Source: an uncultured archaeon
GTDB taxonomy: Archaea; Asgardarchaeota; Thorarchaeia; Thorarchaeales; Thorarchaeaceae
Reading direction: 5' to 3'
Length of the DNA: 27,972 nt
Assembly: GCA_964610875.1 (NCBI GenBank)
Contig: CAZSWP010000046.1
Coordinates: 1-27,972, forward strand
Below are positions 6,770 through 14,533 of this stretch, piece after piece. The stretch's first letter is position 1; every line of letters starts with the position of its first letter. The position numbers and the translations under genes were made by a program. Below the pieces are notes generated by a model. That model had not been told where the DNA came from, did not search any database, and was given only the letters and a program-made list of their open reading frames with translations.

Positions 6770-7810
6770 CTACTTTGTCACCTTAAAGAGGCCTGCTGGA
6801 GTTGCTGTCTTGACTTGCTTTGCTCCGGCTTCCTTCGCCCATTGAATGAAGTGTTCCTTCTCAATTGCACCGTATGCACCTTCATTCAGAAGGATGTAGA
6901 GTTCGATATACGGGTCAAGCATAGGGATGAACGCTTCAGTACCAAAGAACAATCCATCGGGTTTCAGAACACGAATCATCTCTTTTGTGGCTCGTTCTGC
7001 ATCACACCAGTGAATCACCTGCGAGGTGTAGACGATATCAAAGAAATCATCCTCGAACGGTAAGTTATCTGCAGAGCCTTGCAGGTACTCTGGATGGAAA
7101 TCGCCCAGTTCCTCAATGACTTGTTTATCAACACCAAGATGACGTGCTGCGTACTGGACAAACTCGTCTTCAGCGATCTGCAACAGACCGGCGTCGTACT
7201 CCAAGGCGTAGAGATTGACGGGTCGGTCCGAATCAAATGCTCCTTCCTTGTAATAATAGCTCCAGATTGCAGCAGTCCCGATTCCACTTCCACAACCCAC
7301 ATCGAAAAAGGAACCTCTGTGTTTCAATGCGGAAGCATACTTGAACGCAGCCCGGCGTATCTGTTCATACATCTTCAGCTGCAGTGAGTCGTCCCAGTTG
7401 AAGAGATTCATATCATCTGAGAATGTTATGTAATGACCTCGCAGACGACTGGGAATTGCCTCAGCCGAGTCGGCTACAATCTCAGCCATTCCCTGTCCGA
7501 ACACTTCTGGGGGTTCAGCTGAGAACTCAGGCACAACCCCGTTCACCTTGTAAGCATATTCATGCTGTATCAGGATATCATCTTCGGCGAACACATCCAA
7601 CACTTTTGAGAGGTACTTCAGGTCCTCATAGCCAAAGTGGTCAGAGATATCTTGAAGAGTTCTTGGTTTTGTCAGGTAATCGAACAGTCCCTCTCGTCTG
7701 AGTATATTGACTGAGTTTGCACGATAGAAGTTCTTCAGTTCCGTCTTATGTCTACGGATATTTCCACCCAGTTTTAGTAGTTGTAACCATGCACCAATTA
7801 ATGAAGCCAT
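6770..7810 (-). CDS. class I SAM-dependent methyltransferase with N-terminal winged-helix/dimerisation domain
   Basis: Motif I FFDVGCGSG, ALEYD, GSADNLPFEDDFFDIV, EMIRVLKPDG. N-terminal GLFDYLTKPRTLQDISDHFG helix-turn-helix. SD GAGGTGA upstream. Confidence 0.88.
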   Translation of the reverse strand: MASLIGAWLQLLKLGGNIRRHKTELKNFYRANSVNILRREGLFDYLTKPRTLQDISDHFGYEDLKYLSKVLDVFAEDDILIQHEYAYKVNGVVPEFSAEPPEVFGQGMAEIVADSAEAIPSRLRGHYITFSDDMNLFNWDDSLQLKMYEQIRRAAFKYASALKHRGSFFDVGCGSGIGTAAIWSYYYKEGAFDSDRPVNLYALEYDAGLLQIAEDEFVQYAARHLGVDKQVIEELGDFHPEYLQGSADNLPFEDDFFDIVYTSQVIHWCDAERATKEMIRVLKPDGLFFGTEAFIPMLDPYIELYILLNEGAYGAIEKEHFIQWAKEAGAKQVKTATPAGLFKVTK

Positions 7811-7826
7811 GTTATCACCTCATAGG

Positions 7827-8753
7827 TTATCCTAAAATATTCCTTCGATTTACAAAATCCACCAGCTCAAAGACCTCTTTGTACCGAGAACAATATTTGT
7901 CTTCTAACACCTCAATGAGTGTAGTGTAGCCCCTCAGAAGAGGTCCAAGGATGTCTTTAGCGATAGGAAATCTTCTTGCAGTACGTTCGACAATACTAGG
8001 TATCCGTTCTTCAAAGGGAGTCTGAAACTTGGCAAAGAGCATATCCGCATTCAGGATCTGTTCGAGAATTGATGAGGAAACCTCGTCATCTAACTCTAGA
8101 ATGCGAAAGACAAGATTCAGAATCCTACTTCTGGGGACAATACTATCCTCGGACTCTTCGACAATGAGCGGAGCGACTGACTGAAATTTCTCAATCATTA
8201 CACCATCTATAAAACTCAGACACAGAACGCGAGTGTCAGAACTCCAGCAGTAGATGTCAAGGTCAGCAAACTGAACCTTCAGTGGTTGCGGTAGTTCTGT
8301 ATAGATACAAGCTGCCTCCTCAAGACGGTTCAAGACATGATAAGACATCTCTGTAGCATTCAGATTCTTCGGGCTTACGATATCCACAACCCATCTGTGT
8401 TTCCTGCTTATCAGGAAGGCGAATTGCAGGTGTTCCAGTTGTTTAGTTATGGGTGTGTCTTCATGATAGACCCAATAATCAGGTGTACTCTCTGTAACTG
8501 TGTCAAGCTTCTCAAGTGGTTCTATGTATGCATCTCTATGCCCACGGAAGAACCCCATCTGGTCAACAATCACTGAATTGTAGTGACGTTCATGATCAGT
8601 ATCATGATAGACACGAAAGGTCGTCAATTTCATCCCGAAAAAGTCATCGTGATCGCTCTGCGAGATGAAGGTTTCTGAATCTTTTAGGTCGAGGGCGATC
8701 TCCGCACCACATACTCTACATGCAAACTTGGTAACAGTTCGTGTTAGTGTCAT
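7827..8753 (-). CDS. hypothetical protein with N-terminal CxxC...H...H Zn-binding module and possible longin-like central domain
   Basis: FACRVCG...RVYH...ERHYNSVIVDQMGFFRGH. Central beta/alpha pattern. SD AGGAG upstream; 19-bp gap to the GTPase gene. Confidence 0.6.
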   Translation of the reverse strand: MTLTRTVTKFACRVCGAEIALDLKDSETFISQSDHDDFFGMKLTTFRVYHDTDHERHYNSVIVDQMGFFRGHRDAYIEPLEKLDTVTESTPDYWVYHEDTPITKQLEHLQFAFLISRKHRWVVDIVSPKNLNATEMSYHVLNRLEEAACIYTELPQPLKVQFADLDIYCWSSDTRVLCLSFIDGVMIEKFQSVAPLIVEESEDSIVPRSRILNLVFRILELDDEVSSSILEQILNADMLFAKFQTPFEERIPSIVERTARRFPIAKDILGPLLRGYTTLIEVLEDKYCSRYKEVFELVDFVNRRNILG

Positions 8754-8772
8754 TCTTTTGGATTCTCCTTGG

Positions 8773-9396
8773 TCATTTAGTAGCTATGTATTCAACAAGC
8801 CAGTCCTTCAGGTTATTCACACCTTGACCATCCAGGCAGCTGATCTCAAAATATGCCTCAGCAAGAGGTTCCGACTTCATGAATTGCTCAACCAGACCCG
8901 GGTCAATACTGCGGTCTAAGTCACTCTTGTTCATAATGAGGACGAAGCGTAGTGATTTACTAGGGTTCTCTACATATTGTGATTTGACGATTGACGCCCA
9001 GTCTCGCAAGTCCAGTAGTGATTGTAGATTATCTGCTGCAAAGAGAAGTAGAACAAGGTCTACACCTTTGATAGCAATATCACTGAGGTCTCTCAGTGCA
9101 TGAATAGGTGCATCGAGCTGTCCTGCAACATCCACCATCAAAAATACTCCTTTAGAACCTGTTCCCCCAATTCGCTCGACACCAATGGTCTCTAGATTAA
9201 TGAACGGAGTTCGATGATACGCAGAAACAGAATCTGACTCGGCTAATGGTTCACCCTTTTGTAGGGTTCTAACAAGTGTGGTCTTACCCACAGCTCCAGA
9301 ACCAGCTACTAAGACTTTGATAACACCTAGCTTCCTCTCGTTAGTACTCACTGATAGTTCACTCTCTTGCGATGAGGTTCTTGTTGTGTTAGCCAT
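8773..9396 (-). CDS. Ras/Rab-like small GTPase
   Basis: G1 GSGAVGKTT, G2 YHRT, G3 DVAGQ, G4 NKSD, G5 EISC. No C-terminal prenylation motif. Confidence 0.92.
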   Translation of the reverse strand: MANTTRTSSQESELSVSTNERKLGVIKVLVAGSGAVGKTTLVRTLQKGEPLAESDSVSAYHRTPFINLETIGVERIGGTGSKGVFLMVDVAGQLDAPIHALRDLSDIAIKGVDLVLLLFAADNLQSLLDLRDWASIVKSQYVENPSKSLRFVLIMNKSDLDRSIDPGLVEQFMKSEPLAEAYFEISCLDGQGVNNLKDWLVEYIATK

Positions 9397-9886: not shown

Positions 9887-11386
9887 TCATTGTATCTCTT
9901 GTAGATGATTTAGAGCCCATCTACCTTTCTCAGTAATGGTAAAGAATTTCCGAACAGTCTTCCTTATTGTTTGTTCTGTTCGCGAACTGGTAATGAGTCC
10001 GTCTTCTACTAGTTCATTGAGATGTTGGTAGACTGTAGGAATAGAAACTTCGCATTCATAATCATCTCTCAGCGTCTTCCATATCTTGTAACCGTAGGAA
10101 TCACTTGTTGAGAGAATCTGAAGAATGATGGCCTTTGTGGCTCCCAATCGTTTCATCTGATGTCTGCCTTCTCTTCTACTCAAGAAACTTGCCAATTCCT
10201 TTCTATCCTGTACTAGTGTTCTTGTGAATTCCGGATACTTCAGACCCATTCCTGTTATTACACATATGACAGTGTCAGACCTGTCTATGATTCGGTTATC
10301 AACGAGTTTTTTCAAAGCAGCTATTGTTGTAGCTGATGCAGGTTCTGCAAACACTCCTTCGTATTTAGCCAAATCAGCTATTGCATCAAGAATCTCCTCA
10401 TCTGAAACCCCTATTGCAGTACCTTCTGACTCTTTGATTGCTTGTATTGCCATGTGACCACAGGTCGGCTGTCTAATGGCGATATCTTTTGCGATTGTTT
10501 CAGATTCTCTAGTCAGTTGAGGCATAGTGGATGCTGCCTGAAATCCTTCGACGATTGGCGCACAATTATATGCCTGAGTACCAATCAAGCCGATTCTTGA
10601 ATCGTCAATGAATCCAATCTCTCGAAATTCTCCAATTGCCTTCCATATCATTGCAAGGTGACATCCACTTCCCATAGGTGCCACAATCCAGTCTGGGTAG
10701 GATCCTTGAAGCTGATCCAAAATCTCATACGCCGTTGTTTTGACGCCTTCAAGGAACCATGGATTTGATGGTGACACAATATGACTATTGCGTTTCCTTT
10801 TTGCTGACCTGTGGCTTGTTTCTCTCGCATCCTTGACAATTTGTACATCTGTACCATAAGCGAGTATCTGATAGAGCTTTCCGATATCTATTCGACTGTC
10901 TTTTGAGATATAGATCTCACTCTTCAGACTTGCTCGTGCGGCATATGCTACCAATGATGCGGCAAGATTTCCAGTAGTTCCCGATAACACTGTTGATATT
11001 CCAAATTCCTTGGCTTTTGATATCTCTACAGATGTCCCTCTGTCAATAAATGCCCCTGTAGGATTATGGGTTTCATCCTTTAGATAAAGCTCAGACAAAC
11101 CAATCCGTTCTGCATATCTCCGCCCTTTGAGCAGAGGTGTACCCCCCTCTCCAAGTGTGACGATATAGCTTGGATTGGTAATTGGCAACAGTTCAGAATA
11201 TTTCCAGAGTCCTGGTGGTCTGGATGTGAACGTGTTTCGGTCAATTCTCTCAGATATCTTAGACAATTCATAACGGATCCCAATAATGCCTCCACATACT
11301 GGGCAGGTTCTTTGAAGAGTATCTTCTTCCAGAACGTTTCTACATTCTCCACAAAATGAAGTGTAAGTCCTAATATGACGGCTCAT
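9887..11386 (-). CDS. threonine-synthase-like (fold-type II PLP) protein lacking the catalytic Lys, fused to a C-terminal PadR-like wHTH; probable transcription regulator
   Basis: N-terminal CxxC..CxxC, LGEGGTPL, KDETHNPTGAFIDRG (canonical SFKDRG), TTGNLA, PMGSGC, EPASA, VITGMGLK. C-terminal ILQIL...SYGYKIWKTL...SIPTVYQHLNELVEDGLI...RKFFTITEKG. Likely start ATG 11386. Confidence 0.85.
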   Translation of the reverse strand: MSRHIRTYTSFCGECRNVLEEDTLQRTCPVCGGIIGIRYELSKISERIDRNTFTSRPPGLWKYSELLPITNPSYIVTLGEGGTPLLKGRRYAERIGLSELYLKDETHNPTGAFIDRGTSVEISKAKEFGISTVLSGTTGNLAASLVAYAARASLKSEIYISKDSRIDIGKLYQILAYGTDVQIVKDARETSHRSAKRKRNSHIVSPSNPWFLEGVKTTAYEILDQLQGSYPDWIVAPMGSGCHLAMIWKAIGEFREIGFIDDSRIGLIGTQAYNCAPIVEGFQAASTMPQLTRESETIAKDIAIRQPTCGHMAIQAIKESEGTAIGVSDEEILDAIADLAKYEGVFAEPASATTIAALKKLVDNRIIDRSDTVICVITGMGLKYPEFTRTLVQDRKELASFLSRREGRHQMKRLGATKAIILQILSTSDSYGYKIWKTLRDDYECEVSIPTVYQHLNELVEDGLITSSRTEQTIRKTVRKFFTITEKGRWALNHLQEIQ

Positions 11387-11387
11387 A

Positions 11388-11416
11388 CCTATATATAGGC
11401 TTTTACTTATATATAA
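11388..11416. promoter_or_regulatory. TATA box and adjacent palindrome in a divergent promoter
   Basis: Perfect palindrome CCTATATATAGG at 11388-11399. TTATATATAA at 11407-11416, about 25 nt upstream of ATG 11386 on the - strand. Confidence 0.5.
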
Positions 11417-11464
11417 TTTGAGTGGGGAGTTAATCAAAGCAAGTAATCTCTACAAAGGAAGTAT

Positions 11465-12046
11465 GTGGGATGTGGCCAATTGCAGATACATGATACAACT
11501 TCTAATCCATCAAGCATCAAAATTGGCGATGCAACAAGAGAGGATAATCAATGCATTTACAGAGTTCTTGAATTAGCGTTCCATGAAATGACAGATCGCA
11601 ACTATTCAAAAATAGCAATCAATGCAGCAATAAAAGATACAGCTGAGATTGAACATCGAATCCTATCTGACCATATAGTGTTAGTAGCAAAAGTAGCTGA
11701 AAGAATTGTGGGAACTGTCAGTGGCTGTGTGGAACATATGGCTATGCATATGAAATCACTTGCAGTTATTCCATCCTATCGGAATAAAGGAATTGCATCC
11801 CAACTCATTCGTGAACTTGAATCTAGAGCAATCACATGTGGTTGTAACAAAGTATTCGTACAGACTGCCTTGGTCATGTTCGAAGCTATTCGTCTATACA
11901 TAAAGTTGGGATACAGAGTAGAGGGTCATCTGAATAATCACTACTATGGAGAGGACTTGCTTTTTTTTGGAAAATCATTCAAAGAGGATGATGAAAATTG
12001 GAATCTGGAGTTTCATATCGGAGCAATAAGACATTTCATATTATAA
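11465..12046 (+). CDS. GNAT family N-acetyltransferase
   Basis: LAVIPSYRNKGIASQLI (acetyl-CoA motif A) and AIRLYIKLGY (motif B). Confidence 0.88.
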   Translation: MGCGQLQIHDTTSNPSSIKIGDATREDNQCIYRVLELAFHEMTDRNYSKIAINAAIKDTAEIEHRILSDHIVLVAKVAERIVGTVSGCVEHMAMHMKSLAVIPSYRNKGIASQLIRELESRAITCGCNKVFVQTALVMFEAIRLYIKLGYRVEGHLNNHYYGEDLLFFGKSFKEDDENWNLEFHIGAIRHFIL

Positions 12047-12525
12047 TGATAGCAATTATGACAGCATTGACTACTGTAGTCACAGTAAGTGTCGCCATAC
12101 CGTTCCCTACAAGTACAGGGTATTTGAATTTTGGTGATGCACTAGTAATGATTAGCGGGATGATACTTGGACCCTTTGGTGGTTTCTTTACTGGTGGTGT
12201 AGGTTCTGCATTTGGCGATATTCTACTAGGATATTACCATTTCGTGCCAATCACATTCATGGTGAAAGGAATCGAAGGTCTAATTGTCGGACGGGCTTCA
12301 CAACTCTCTAGGAATAAAGAACGACTGGGTGTCTGGGATATAATTGGATTGGTACTAGGTTCACTCGCAATGTTAGTAGGGTATCTTATTGCGGAGATTC
12401 CTCTTGTAGGATTAGAGGCAGCTTTGGCTGAACTAATCACTGTGAACTCAATACAAGTGATAGTTGGTTCCATAATTGCGGCGATAGTAGGTCCAAGGAT
12501 ACGGCACTTCATGCAGTTTCAATGA
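11998..12525 (+). CDS. ECF transporter S component (HmpT/PdxU2-like subfamily)
   Basis: IAIMTAL motif, IPFPTSTGYLNFGD, GPFGGFFTGGVGSAFGDILLGY, KGIEGLIVG, NSIQ. Six hydrophobic helices. TTG start after GAGGATGA. Confidence 0.88.
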   Translation: MESGVSYRSNKTFHIIMIAIMTALTTVVTVSVAIPFPTSTGYLNFGDALVMISGMILGPFGGFFTGGVGSAFGDILLGYYHFVPITFMVKGIEGLIVGRASQLSRNKERLGVWDIIGLVLGSLAMLVGYLIAEIPLVGLEAALAELITVNSIQVIVGSIIAAIVGPRIRHFMQFQ

Positions 12526-13024: not shown

Positions 13025-14533
13025 TCAAGGTCCAAGGATTGTCAAAGCCCATGCAAGCTGTCCGTCCCAATTGATCTTGAGGTCCAATGCGAAACTGTCC
13101 ACACCATCATCAGGGGGATATTCCTCAGCTAACATAGGTTTCTGATAATCCTGTTTCTGATCAAGTTTGAGTTCATAACACGACTGGTCATATGCAGTAT
13201 AGAAGTTGGCACCGGCAGCAAGCTGGGTGTACAACACATATGAAAATGGGCATCTCCATTCACCGTCGGTGTAGGTGAACTCAGCATCATGCTCGTCATC
13301 GGATGACGTGATTACCAGACGGTCTTCATCTTCAAGAAATTGGACTAACTTTCCAGAATAACATGATTCAATCACGATCACCATCTTGCCGTATTCAGCT
13401 ATTTCATTGATGGTGTTACCTATTGCAGTACCAGAAATTGTGTCTGTACCATCACCTCTATCCAATACCAGTCCTTGATAAGCGCCAATATCATCAACAC
13501 GACCATGACCAACTAGATAGATGAATACAAGGTCATCAGAATCACATCTTTCCCAATCTTGTGTATAGTCTTTATCATCGTCTTCAGTCCAGTATGGCCA
13601 GCTAAGATATCCTGGATTTTGACTGCTTGGAAGATTAGTAAAATCCTCAACAGATTCATCAGTCACTTCAATATCTTTGATGAAATCGAATCCCTTGGAA
13701 TTGACAAGATTGATCATCCTTAGATATTCGTTATGATGTGCATCATAGTCCCCATTTGATTCTGTATCACCATTGAGGTTGATTATCAATGCATACCTCT
13801 TGTCTACTGTGAATGAATCAGTAGTGAAAGTACTCTCAGAGGTAGCAGAAAGAGTAATGGAGTCAATGACGTGAGTGACATAGACATTGTACCTGTAGAC
13901 TGAACGCAGAGCGAAACCTTGTATTGTATCACTACCAGAGTCTCCTGAGGGAACACTCTGAGTACTCCGAACAACATCCCACTCTATATCTCCATCATCG
14001 TGACGGTACTTGATGGTAATCTGAGGTGAGCTTCCCTTTCCTTCTCTACCCCAACTGGTCACCGCCCAGTTAAGTACCGCATACTTTTCTGAAGCATCCA
14101 CTGACACAGAGAGAGAGGGCTTGCAACTTGTAATGGTGTAGTAACCTGTTGTCGTTGTAAGGGTTTCTTCCGGAAAGATTGTTTCCGATGCTTTGATCTT
14201 GTAGGAATATGATGATGTGGGACTCAATCCAGTTATTTGTCGTTCATATCTCCATTTGTAGCTTGTATACTCATGTACTTTATACATGAGATACCAACCC
14301 TTTCCAGACACATACACATGTACCTGACGAGTCGATTCTGCATGACGCCAACATACGGTAACTCCAATGGTCACTTCAGTAGTGGAGTCTGAGGTATAGC
14401 TTGGAGTGTATACTATTGGCTTCTCCTGCGGCGGTGGTGGCGGTGGTAGTACACCAATGGCACCAACTGCCTGAGTCACTAAAAGCACTGTCAAGAACAC
14501 AGTATATACATAAAGGAACTTCTTTTTGTTCAT
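13025..14533 (-). CDS. secreted clan CD cysteine peptidase (C13 legumain/caspase-like) with N-terminal FN3-like domains
   Basis: Signal peptide, poly-Pro linker and FN3-like ITGLSPTSSYSYKIKA. Dyad LVFIYLVGHG (His 13505-13507) and VIVIESCYSG (Cys 13361-13363); LVITSS. SD GGAGG. Confidence 0.82.
   Translation of the reverse strand: MNKKKFLYVYTVFLTVLLVTQAVGAIGVLPPPPPPQEKPIVYTPSYTSDSTTEVTIGVTVCWRHAESTRQVHVYVSGKGWYLMYKVHEYTSYKWRYERQITGLSPTSSYSYKIKASETIFPEETLTTTTGYYTITSCKPSLSVSVDASEKYAVLNWAVTSWGREGKGSSPQITIKYRHDDGDIEWDVVRSTQSVPSGDSGSDTIQGFALRSVYRYNVYVTHVIDSITLSATSESTFTTDSFTVDKRYALIINLNGDTESNGDYDAHHNEYLRMINLVNSKGFDFIKDIEVTDESVEDFTNLPSSQNPGYLSWPYWTEDDDKDYTQDWERCDSDDLVFIYLVGHGRVDDIGAYQGLVLDRGDGTDTISGTAIGNTINEIAEYGKMVIVIESCYSGKLVQFLEDEDRLVITSSDDEHDAEFTYTDGEWRCPFSYVLYTQLAAGANFYTAYDQSCYELKLDQKQDYQKPMLAEEYPPDDGVDSFALDLKINWDGQLAWALTILGP

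Follow-up and report, generated by a model that had tools for sequence, protein, structure and literature searches.

A threonine synthase-like protein without the catalytic lysine, fused to a PadR winged helix: a candidate vitamin B6-responsive regulator in Archaea

Known regulators of vitamin supply and the architecture of the fusion protein

In Bacteria, PdxR governs pdxST and B6 transport genes (PMC5320631, PMC9997740). It belongs to the MocR/GabR subfamily of one-component regulators, in which an N-terminal GntR-type winged helix (wHTH) is combined with a fold-type I aminotransferase-like sensor domain. This domain retains the PLP lysine. Among archaeal regulators, ThiR (thiamine) and RbkR (riboflavin) join an enzyme or enzyme-like domain of pathway chemistry to a DNA-binding domain, and control genes of vitamin synthesis and uptake. 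Typical PadR regulators have a length of about 110-180 aa and sense their ligands by the wHTH or the dimerisation region.

The window, which is the whole stretch of DNA that was analysed (27,972 nucleotides of contig CAZSWP010000046.1, from a Thorarchaeaceae assembly), encodes a protein in which a threonine synthase (ThrC)-like domain lacking the lysine is fused to a PadR wHTH. The gene is located at 9887..11386 of the minus strand (499 aa, stop codon included). We estimate at roughly 0.7 the probability that it encodes a one-component transcription regulator responsive to vitamin B6. MocR likewise works as one component with a PLP-enzyme-like sensor domain, but in the present case the wHTH is C-terminal and of the PadR type, the sensor is of fold-type II and has lost its lysine, and the hosts are Archaea, whereas MocR hosts are bacterial. 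By Pfam the protein contains no GntR or aminotransferase domain and falls outside MocR/PdxR. The ThrC-PadR protein is an analogue of MocR made of unrelated parts, not a member of it. With ThiR and RbkR the design logic is shared; the domains and the vitamin differ, and the sensor comes here from a cofactor-using enzyme instead of a B6-pathway enzyme. We know of no earlier case of a fold-type II PLP enzyme fold serving as the sensor of a regulator. No description of a ThrC-PadR regulator was found in the literature searched, nor in a survey of archaeal fusions (PMC11237513).

Inspection of the open reading frame indicated ATG 11386 as the likely start, the protein beginning with MSRHIRT. The alternative start TTG 11437 was rejected, since its reading frame would cross the conserved operator described below. 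An N-terminal Zn ribbon (C12, C15, C28 and C31; 11294..11353, minus strand) was recognised by sequence conservation. In the alignment C12, C15 and C31 were invariant across the fusions and canonical Asgard ThrC, and C28 and C31 were close to invariant in A1. The fold-type II PLP domain comprises residues 76-379 (10250..11161, minus strand; Pfam PF00291 PALP, E 2.5e-62), and the PadR-type winged helix residues 421-492 (9911..10126, minus strand; Pfam PF03551, E 3.1e-15). The latter scored 56.4 bits, above the PadR family gathering score of 27, and matched the PadR structure 5DYM (E 2.7e-12), in agreement with the C-terminal PadR-like wHTH proposed by the first-pass annotation.

The AF2 model of the protein had a pLDDT of 87.7, and its best fold match by Foldseek was the ThrC 2ZSJ (target-normalised TM 0.87, rmsd 2.2 Å). 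The model places a probable recognition helix at residues 449-461, in which Y453-Q454-H455 are invariant in the alignment, and a C-terminal helix after the winged helix. The winged helix, the C-terminal helix and a promoter-overlapping palindromic operator (predicted here) are features in common with PadR regulators, from which the protein differs by a 400-aa enzyme-derived sensor ahead of the wHTH. With Zn-ribbon ThrC (NF006050/PRK08197; 2ZSJ, 1UIM) it has in common the fold, the Zn ribbon, the cofactor motifs and the predicted dimer-interface domain. It differs from these enzymes in the positions K61 (here Ile), T88, N154, S155 and R160 (Thermus numbering, all replaced), in the addition of a 115-aa linker plus wHTH, and in its context, which is B6 supply and not threonine synthesis. 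A homodimer model through the ThrC-like domain reached an ipSAE of 0.85 (best control 0.00), a score which may stem from the predictor's memory of solved ThrC dimers. Of 30 proteins solved as pairs, 20 attained the ipSAE mark applied here, as did 1 of 23 solved as single chains; among the runs, contact agreement was at least 83% and partner pLDDT at least 82. From this model, the regulator is predicted to dimerise through its ThrC-like domain.

Loss of the Schiff-base lysine and composition of the pocket

The position of the Schiff-base lysine, K61 in the ThrC of T. thermophilus (1UIM), aligns with Ile114, encoded by ATT at 11045..11047 of the minus strand. The strand reads there CCT ACA GGG GCA TTT ATT GAC AGA GGG, within the motif NPTGAFIDRG. 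The Lys to Ile replacement noted in the first-pass annotation was thus found at 11047-11045, as was its remark that ATT stands two substitutions away from AAA or AAG. Lysine occurred in none of the 120 closest homologues, which carry Ile (104) or Leu (16), so that Ile114 is not due to chance or error; a retained lysine in the orthologues, the outcome that the annotation had set against itself, was not observed. The loss of the lysine is a trait of the family and not a sign of decay. In an Asgard-wide sample, the position was occupied by I, L, T, N, R or S in 53 of 57 loci and by K in the other four. A decaying pseudogene was rejected on the basis of the strong conservation of the protein (57% mean column identity). 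In a quick tree the fusions formed three clades, with the Lys-bearing members nested in the R/S clade; the basal support of this tree was weak (85 SH-aLRT), and for one outgroup row, L003, the wrong ORF had been chosen.

The remaining motifs of PLP contact, described as retained in the first reading of the DNA, were all located in the protein: TTGN at 137-140, PMGSGCH at 237-243, EPASA at 348-352 and ITGMGLK at 377-383. Clade A conserves N140, the G239-x-G241-G242 loop and T378-G-x-G-L-K383. As the cofactor-binding motifs are kept, the protein may bind PLP or a phosphorylated B6 vitamer in a non-covalent manner. The site for the phosphate of the substrate showed a different picture. T88, N154, S155 and R160 of Thermus ThrC, which we take to be the substrate-phosphate contacts and for which the numbering alone was checked by alignment, correspond to L141, S205, P206 and F211. 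The aligned positions hold hydrophobic or variable residues: those of N154 and S155 vary in clade A, and F211 is invariant in 40/40 clade A proteins. Since the residues of this site are replaced, threonine and O-phosphohomoserine, proposed initially among the possible ligands, are unlikely to be bound. Residues E121, F211, H243 and Y384 are invariant in a clade-specific manner.

Predicted operator and linkage to B6 supply genes

A GNAT acetyltransferase gene, the first of the divergent operon, was found on the plus strand at 11465..12046 (Pfam PF00583, E 5.9e-15; start GTG 11465 or TTG 11480). It is followed at 12046..12525, plus strand, by a gene for an ECF S-component of the PdxU/HmpT type (Pfam PF07155, 117 bits against 26.7). 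Its likely start is ATG 12046, the longest ORF beginning at TTG 11998, and overlaps the GNAT stop in TAATG (12044-12048). The distance from the regulator start to the GNAT start at GTG 11465 was 78 bp, which matches the shared divergent promoter of about 80 bp described in the first-pass annotation.

The predicted operator, ATATATAA-N7-CCTATATATAGG (11388..11414), lies directly upstream of the start codon of the regulator, within 11380-11470, and overlaps both core promoters. Box 2 is the 12-bp palindrome CCTATATATAGG at 11388-11399; after a 7-bp spacer, box 1, which reads ATATATAA on the minus strand, occupies 11407-11414. The operator was conserved across 36 close-clade loci. The exact 12-mer was found once in the 3.75-Mb genome, where 0.38 occurrences were expected, and a genome-wide PWM scan gave this one match and no second operator. 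Copies of the 12-mer with one mismatch are present at C25:8536 and C69:3301. A degenerate form of the box was detected upstream of the regulator in 53 of 78 named loci; elsewhere in those loci there were 7 matches in 524,651 nt. The perfect 12-bp palindrome, its CC/GG flanks and its fixed distance to the start codon are maintained among regulators of 37-52% identity (best tblastn segment), and the architecture is the same 5' of ECF-S genes and of pdxST genes. In the pdxST-linked loci of Bathyarchaeia the palindrome is CCCATATATGG, and box 1 has likewise changed, to CATATATGA, in three of them. As the element is rich in AT and resembles a TATA box, promoter function, as opposed to regulator binding, could account for part of its conservation.

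The PF07155 S-component adjoins the regulator in 49 of 57 Asgard loci. Among 80 named genomes of Asgard archaea and Thermoproteota it was adjacent in 61, which bears out the conserved ECF-S linkage expected at the outset, and in six others its place is taken by pdxS-pdxT. These six genomes are the firmest support of the B6 assignment. At one such locus (L046) the neighbouring pdxS and pdxT were confirmed by Pfam, and at another (G007) pdxS is immediately 3' of the regulator. In 8 of the 80 loci a GNAT gene separates the regulator from the S-component. In many loci a conserved protein of about 426 aa is encoded 3' of the S-component, for which no relative was found in Pfam, PDB or Atlas.

The sole relative of the S-component in the PDB was chain S of 4HZU (E 1.2e-11), which is HmpT/PdxU2, as the earlier assignment to this type had it; the present host is archaeal. 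The ligand co-purified with HmpT/PdxU2 was pyridoxamine (PMC4860826), and PF07155/COG4720, a family named after riboflavin in Pfam, includes the B6 importers PdxU and PdxU2 (PMC9997740). Residues E41 and Q143 of HmpT have D47 and Q153 as their aligned counterparts in the S-component. In addition to the membership in PF07155, three EcfT genes (PF02361) were found in the genome, the ECF T/A module being encoded away from the locus. The pdxST linkage of the regulator family, together with D47 and Q153, points indirectly to the S-component as a putative importer of a B6 vitamer.

Searches of this genome, which is 95% complete, recovered neither pdxS nor pdxJ, and pdxS was not found in 81 genomes of the same family. 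Some observations count against the B6 reading. HmpT/PdxU2 is a distant relative of the S-component, as its E value indicates; a second, similar S-component gene in the same genome (C35) has neither the regulator nor the operator beside it; of 77 genomes sampled from the same family, 40 carry the fusion; and the search of the genome for a PdxK-type kinase (PF08543), which could turn an imported unphosphorylated vitamer into PLP, gave no match, the kinases found being of the generic PfkB type only.

Proposed mechanism, rival explanations and significance

Every check proposed in the first reading that could be run in silico (loss of the lysine, gene linkage, relative of the S-component, operator within 11380-11470) was favourable to the regulation of vitamin uptake which it suggested. 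The proposed regulator of the B6 supply genes is probably a repressor, repression being preferred to activation by inference. The ThrC-derived sensor would bind PLP or another phosphorylated B6 vitamer reversibly and non-covalently, and the C-terminal PadR winged helices of the dimer would recognise the operator at 11388-11414. This element would lie past the TATA region of the regulator gene and ahead of the point where the regulator's transcript, probably leaderless, begins; the TATA region that serves the divergent GNAT-ECF-S operon would be overlapped as well. When B6 is abundant, the liganded regulator would occupy the operator and block both promoters; when B6 is short, it would leave the operator, and the PdxU/HmpT-type importer would be produced.

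The protein could instead be an enzyme still, either a threonine synthase or a PLP enzyme that needs no internal aldimine, with an accessory or moonlighting wHTH, and the label in the databases would then be correct. In favour of it, the curated cut-offs of two threonine synthase profiles are exceeded (309 against 303 bits for NF006050, 198 against 167.1 bits for TIGR00260). The sources that name members of the family always call them "threonine synthase". The NCBIfam profile NF004170 (PRK05638), which bears the same name, extends across the wHTH, and its cut-off was passed by no control genome. The fold-type II fold and the HMM score of a ThrC are present, but the Schiff-base lysine, missing from all close homologues, and the substrate-phosphate pocket are not. 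Two canonical Lys-bearing ThrC paralogues are encoded in the same genome, so the role of threonine synthase is covered elsewhere, and threonine-pathway neighbourhoods were not seen among the regulator loci examined. Judged from its sequence, the ThrC-like domain appears incapable of catalysis, and an enzymatic role is highly improbable. The possibility that the AT-rich element is just a bidirectional archaeal promoter with two TATA boxes, the linkage reflecting co-expression and the fusion acting elsewhere or having no target here, deserves somewhat more weight and is still improbable. Both boxes are TATA-like, the genome has no second site, and box 1 precedes the predicted start of the transcript by about 26 nt, the expected TATA position of the regulator gene in an archaeal promoter. 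On the other hand, the conservation of the flanked palindrome between such divergent regulators is far above what a TATA box needs, both boxes have changed in the same way in three pdxST-linked loci of Bathyarchaeia, and Y453-Q454-H455 in the predicted recognition helix is invariant.

The most serious competitor, although unlikely, is a one-component regulator that responds to something other than a free B6 vitamer. The ligand might be threonine, serine, homoserine or a similar amino acid or metabolite, or else an external aldimine of PLP with an amino acid, trapped in the Lys-less pocket, and the S-component might take up a different micronutrient, for example a precursor of thiamine. In fold-type II enzymes, mutants that lack the lysine are known to retain PLP as an external aldimine with an amino acid. 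The invariant E121, F211, H243 and Y384 suggest a pocket that was remodelled and not merely disabled. Moreover, the substrate has been verified for a single member of PF07155, HmpT/PdxU2 (PMC9997740), and HmpT was assigned initially to hydroxymethylpyrimidine (PMC4860826). A thiamine or amino-acid regulon leaves unexplained, however, the six genomes with the same regulator and operator beside pdxS-pdxT; O-phosphohomoserine is opposed by the loss of the phosphate-site positions; and with an aldimine as ligand the sensor would still depend on B6.

Returning to the B6-responsive regulator, we lean, with some reserve, towards a broader reading, in which the protein is the missing archaeal master regulator of B6: a Lys-less ThrC paralogue acting as a non-covalent, reversible PLP sensor joined to PadR, distributed in Asgard archaea and Thermoproteota, and placed always on an ECF importer or PdxST. 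If true, Archaea would gain their first proposed B6-responsive transcription factor, as far as the literature searched goes, and the bacterial PdxR a convergent counterpart. The clades with Lys, Arg, Ser, Thr, Asn and Ile/Leu would then represent a natural series that records how an enzyme became a sensor. The label "threonine synthase" on this family can skew metabolic reconstructions of Asgard archaea. The neighbours of the regulator flag B6 uptake genes in lineages for which the searches gave no pdxS and no PdxK-type kinase. This pattern suggests B6 auxotrophy and a dependence on partners in Thorarchaeota-like organisms, as well as a putative salvage kinase.

Architecture of the proposed regulator and loss of the catalytic lysine

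The putative regulator is a 499-aa product of a minus-strand ORF running from 11386 down to 9887. ATG 11386 was preferred as the predicted start over TTG 11437, since translation from the latter would pass through a conserved stretch of non-coding DNA, and since a similar N-terminus is shared by the orthologues (MS..S...C..C). Pfam recognized a PALP domain (residues 76-379, E 2.5e-62) and a PadR domain (421-492, E 3.1e-15), which bears out the C-terminal PadR-like winged helix proposed in the first-pass annotation. The PLP motif reads NPTGAFIDRG. The proposed replacement of the Schiff-base lysine by Ile was read directly in the sequence (ATT, 11047-11045), and the other PLP-contact motifs listed as retained were all seen in the translated ORF. 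The AlphaFold model, obtained with 120 homologues in the alignment, was confident (pLDDT 87.7, pTM 0.79), and its closest structures were threonine synthases (2ZSJ, target-normalised TM 0.87, rmsd 2.2 Å). The protein is a true PadR-domain protein bearing an unusual, predicted N-terminal sensor.

When two copies were modelled with PLP included, a score of 0.85 was obtained, versus 0.00 for the best control, which may show only likeness to ThrC dimers, as these have already been solved; among proteins of solved structure, 20 of 30 pairs reached the mark used, as did 1 of 23 single chains. At least 83% of the contacts agreed between runs, with a partner pLDDT of at least 82. The modelled interface comprises the ThrC-like domain and a linker helix (residues 385-407), and does not involve the winged helix.

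The 120 best database homologues (45-55% identity) all combined PALP and PadR, and nearly all that carried a source name were called "threonine synthase". Had the orthologues all kept Lys, lineage-specific decay would have been the reading under the first-pass annotation. The position was occupied by Ile in 104 of these homologues, Leu in 16 and Lys in none; mean column identity was 57%, with many residues invariant. On the sequences compared, the loss is a family trait rather than decay. An Asgard-wide genome search, made without selection on the PLP motif, returned 57 fusion loci. The window's clade showed Ile or Leu, a second clade Leu, Thr, Asn or Ile, and a third Arg or Ser, with Lys in four loci. 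A quick maximum-likelihood tree separated the fusions from canonical ThrC (SH-aLRT 85) and resolved three fusion clades (support 90, 97 and 100), the Lys-bearing fusions forming a single subclade within the Arg/Ser clade.

The pocket compared with threonine synthase

Alignment to Thermus thermophilus ThrC placed I114 at K61. T88, N154, S155 and R160 of the Thermus enzyme, which we take to be the substrate-phosphate contacts, correspond to L141 (Leu in 39/40 members of clade A, the window protein's own), S205 and P206 (both variable) and F211 (Phe in 40/40). The Lys-bearing fusions likewise lack the Arg of the R160 position. The pocket retains the S-x-G-N asparagine (N140), the Gly-rich phosphate loop (G239, G241, G242), T378-G-x-G-L-K383 and E348-P349; E121, H243 and Y384 are invariant residues new to the clade. 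The same genome also carries two ordinary, Lys-bearing ThrC-like genes (NPSGSFKDRP, NPTLSFKDRG). With the lysine and phosphate contacts changed, the cofactor motifs kept and ordinary genes present, the domain resembles a module that still binds cofactor but no longer binds substrate or catalyses a reaction. The protein clears threonine-synthase HMM cut-offs but fails the catalytic tests. NCBIfam NF004170 (PRK05638), an equivalog profile curated as 'threonine synthase' and 442 positions long, matches the fusion end to end (positions 4-441), winged helix included; therefore, part of the misannotation may sit in the naming models themselves.

A predicted operator

The element ATATATAA-N7-CCTATATATAGG was found upstream of 36 close-clade genes, usually ending 12 nt ahead of the start codon. 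In the window it lies at 11388-11414 and ends 2 nt ahead of the ATG; with the TATA-to-start distance usual in Archaea, the transcript would be leaderless. The 3.75-Mb genome contains the exact 12-mer a single time (0.38 expected), and a genome scan with a PWM of the 37-nt element returned the window site only (32.5 bits; nothing else above 12). Of 78 named loci, 53 have a degenerate 12-mer in the 80 nt upstream, and the remaining 524,651 nt of these loci contain only seven. The architecture extends to Thermoproteota and to pdxST-linked loci, in which the palindrome is CCCATATATGG; box 1 is altered likewise in three. Within the putative recognition helix (449-461 in the AlphaFold model), Y453-Q454-H455 is invariant. 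Because the element is genome-unique, enriched upstream and kept in architecture across lineages, and the helix is invariant, it is read as more than a promoter. It overlaps the regions where the TATA boxes of the two divergent promoters are expected, which would favour a repressor.

More distant ThrC-PadR fusions of other Asgard families (L062-L065, L055-L061; Lys in 4 loci, otherwise Arg or Ser) have no TATATA palindrome upstream, and place the S-component downstream, in a convergent or operon arrangement, instead of divergent upstream.

Linkage to predicted vitamin B6 supply genes

The spacer separating the regulator from the GNAT gene (11465-12046) measured 78 bp, close to the first estimate of about 80 bp. 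The GNAT stop overlaps the ATG of the next gene (TAATG, 12044-12048), an ECF S-component of PF07155 (12046-12525, plus strand). Across 11465-12048 the GNAT gene is inserted between operator and S-component and translationally coupled to the latter, an insertion seen in 8/80 named loci. The sole relative of the S-component among solved structures was 4HZU chain S (L. brevis HmpT/PdxU2, E 1.2e-11). Pyridoxamine co-purified with HmpT, whose E41 and Q143 touch it in simulations (PMC4860826); these residues align with D47 and Q153 of the window's S-component. The B6 importers PdxU and PdxU2 belong to PF07155/COG4720 (PMC9997740).

Elsewhere in the window, 7827-9396 (minus strand) encodes a small Ras/Arf/Roc-like GTPase (207 aa) and then a 308-aa ORF that matched no Pfam family; a class I methyltransferase (6770-7810) comes next, in an arrangement typical of small-GTPase loci in Asgard genomes. 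The 502-aa product of 13025-14533 (minus strand) has a hydrophobic N-terminal segment and matches peptidase C13 (legumain-like) weakly (E 1.4e-7).

The suggested tie to a B6-type transporter held when neighbours were tabulated: the S-component was linked in 49/57 Asgard fusion loci, 61/80 named species genomes and 6/7 database contigs (Sif-, Hod-, Loki-, Thor- and Bathyarchaeia-labelled assemblies). The named genomes span Thor-, Prometh-, Hermod-, Njord- and Sifarchaeota, Bathyarchaeia, Nitrososphaeria/Caldarchaeales, Methanomethylicia and Thermoprotei. This set was gathered partly by an I/L-requiring pattern, which biases the tally of residues at the lysine position (I 47, L 28, V 2, T 1, A 1, 1 unread) and leaves gene contexts unbiased. 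The fusion was carried by 40 of 77 sampled genomes of the window's family.

A second PF07155 S-component (195 aa) is found on another contig of the same genome (L067, C35:23611-27069). The order there, an uncharacterized 426-aa protein, the S-component, then a divergent desulfoferrodoxin and a 202-aa protein, recurs at Loki and Thor loci beside the regulator; regulator gene and operator are both absent from this locus. In many loci (L067:62-1342, minus strand; L009, L011, L013, L014) the gene immediately 3' of the S-component encodes a conserved protein of about 425-434 aa. It had no relative in Pfam, PDB or Atlas, and may belong to the same B6 uptake/salvage unit.

In 6/80 named genomes pdxS-pdxT adjoin the regulator in place of the S-component; the arrangement is divergent in five (one Borrarchaeum, four Bathyarchaeota) and codirectional in the sixth, a Baldrarchaeum. 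At one such locus, L046 (pdxS E 2e-97, pdxT E 3.5e-50 by Pfam), the 95-bp spacer carries boxes of the same kind as the operator. In one compared genome, G007, pdxS lies directly 3' of the regulator. No pdxS was found in four other genomes with the S-component beside the regulator, nor in any of 81 genomes of the window's family, to which, by matching coordinates, records titled Candidatus Thorarchaeota also belong. The window's own genome (95% complete) yielded no pdxS, pdxJ or PdxK-type kinase; EcfT genes are present, and the kinase candidates are generic PfkB kinases only. These absences point to likely B6 auxotrophy in the organism and its family, with a presumed salvage kinase.

The functionally nearest known system is bacterial PdxR/MocR, but its defining parts are all absent from the window protein (Pfam). 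No description of a ThrC-PadR regulator was found in the searchable literature. Judged from gene neighbourhoods and the pdxS absences, the regulator goes with whichever B6 supply route the genome possesses, and we rate it as a putative member of the enzyme-derived one-component vitamin regulators.
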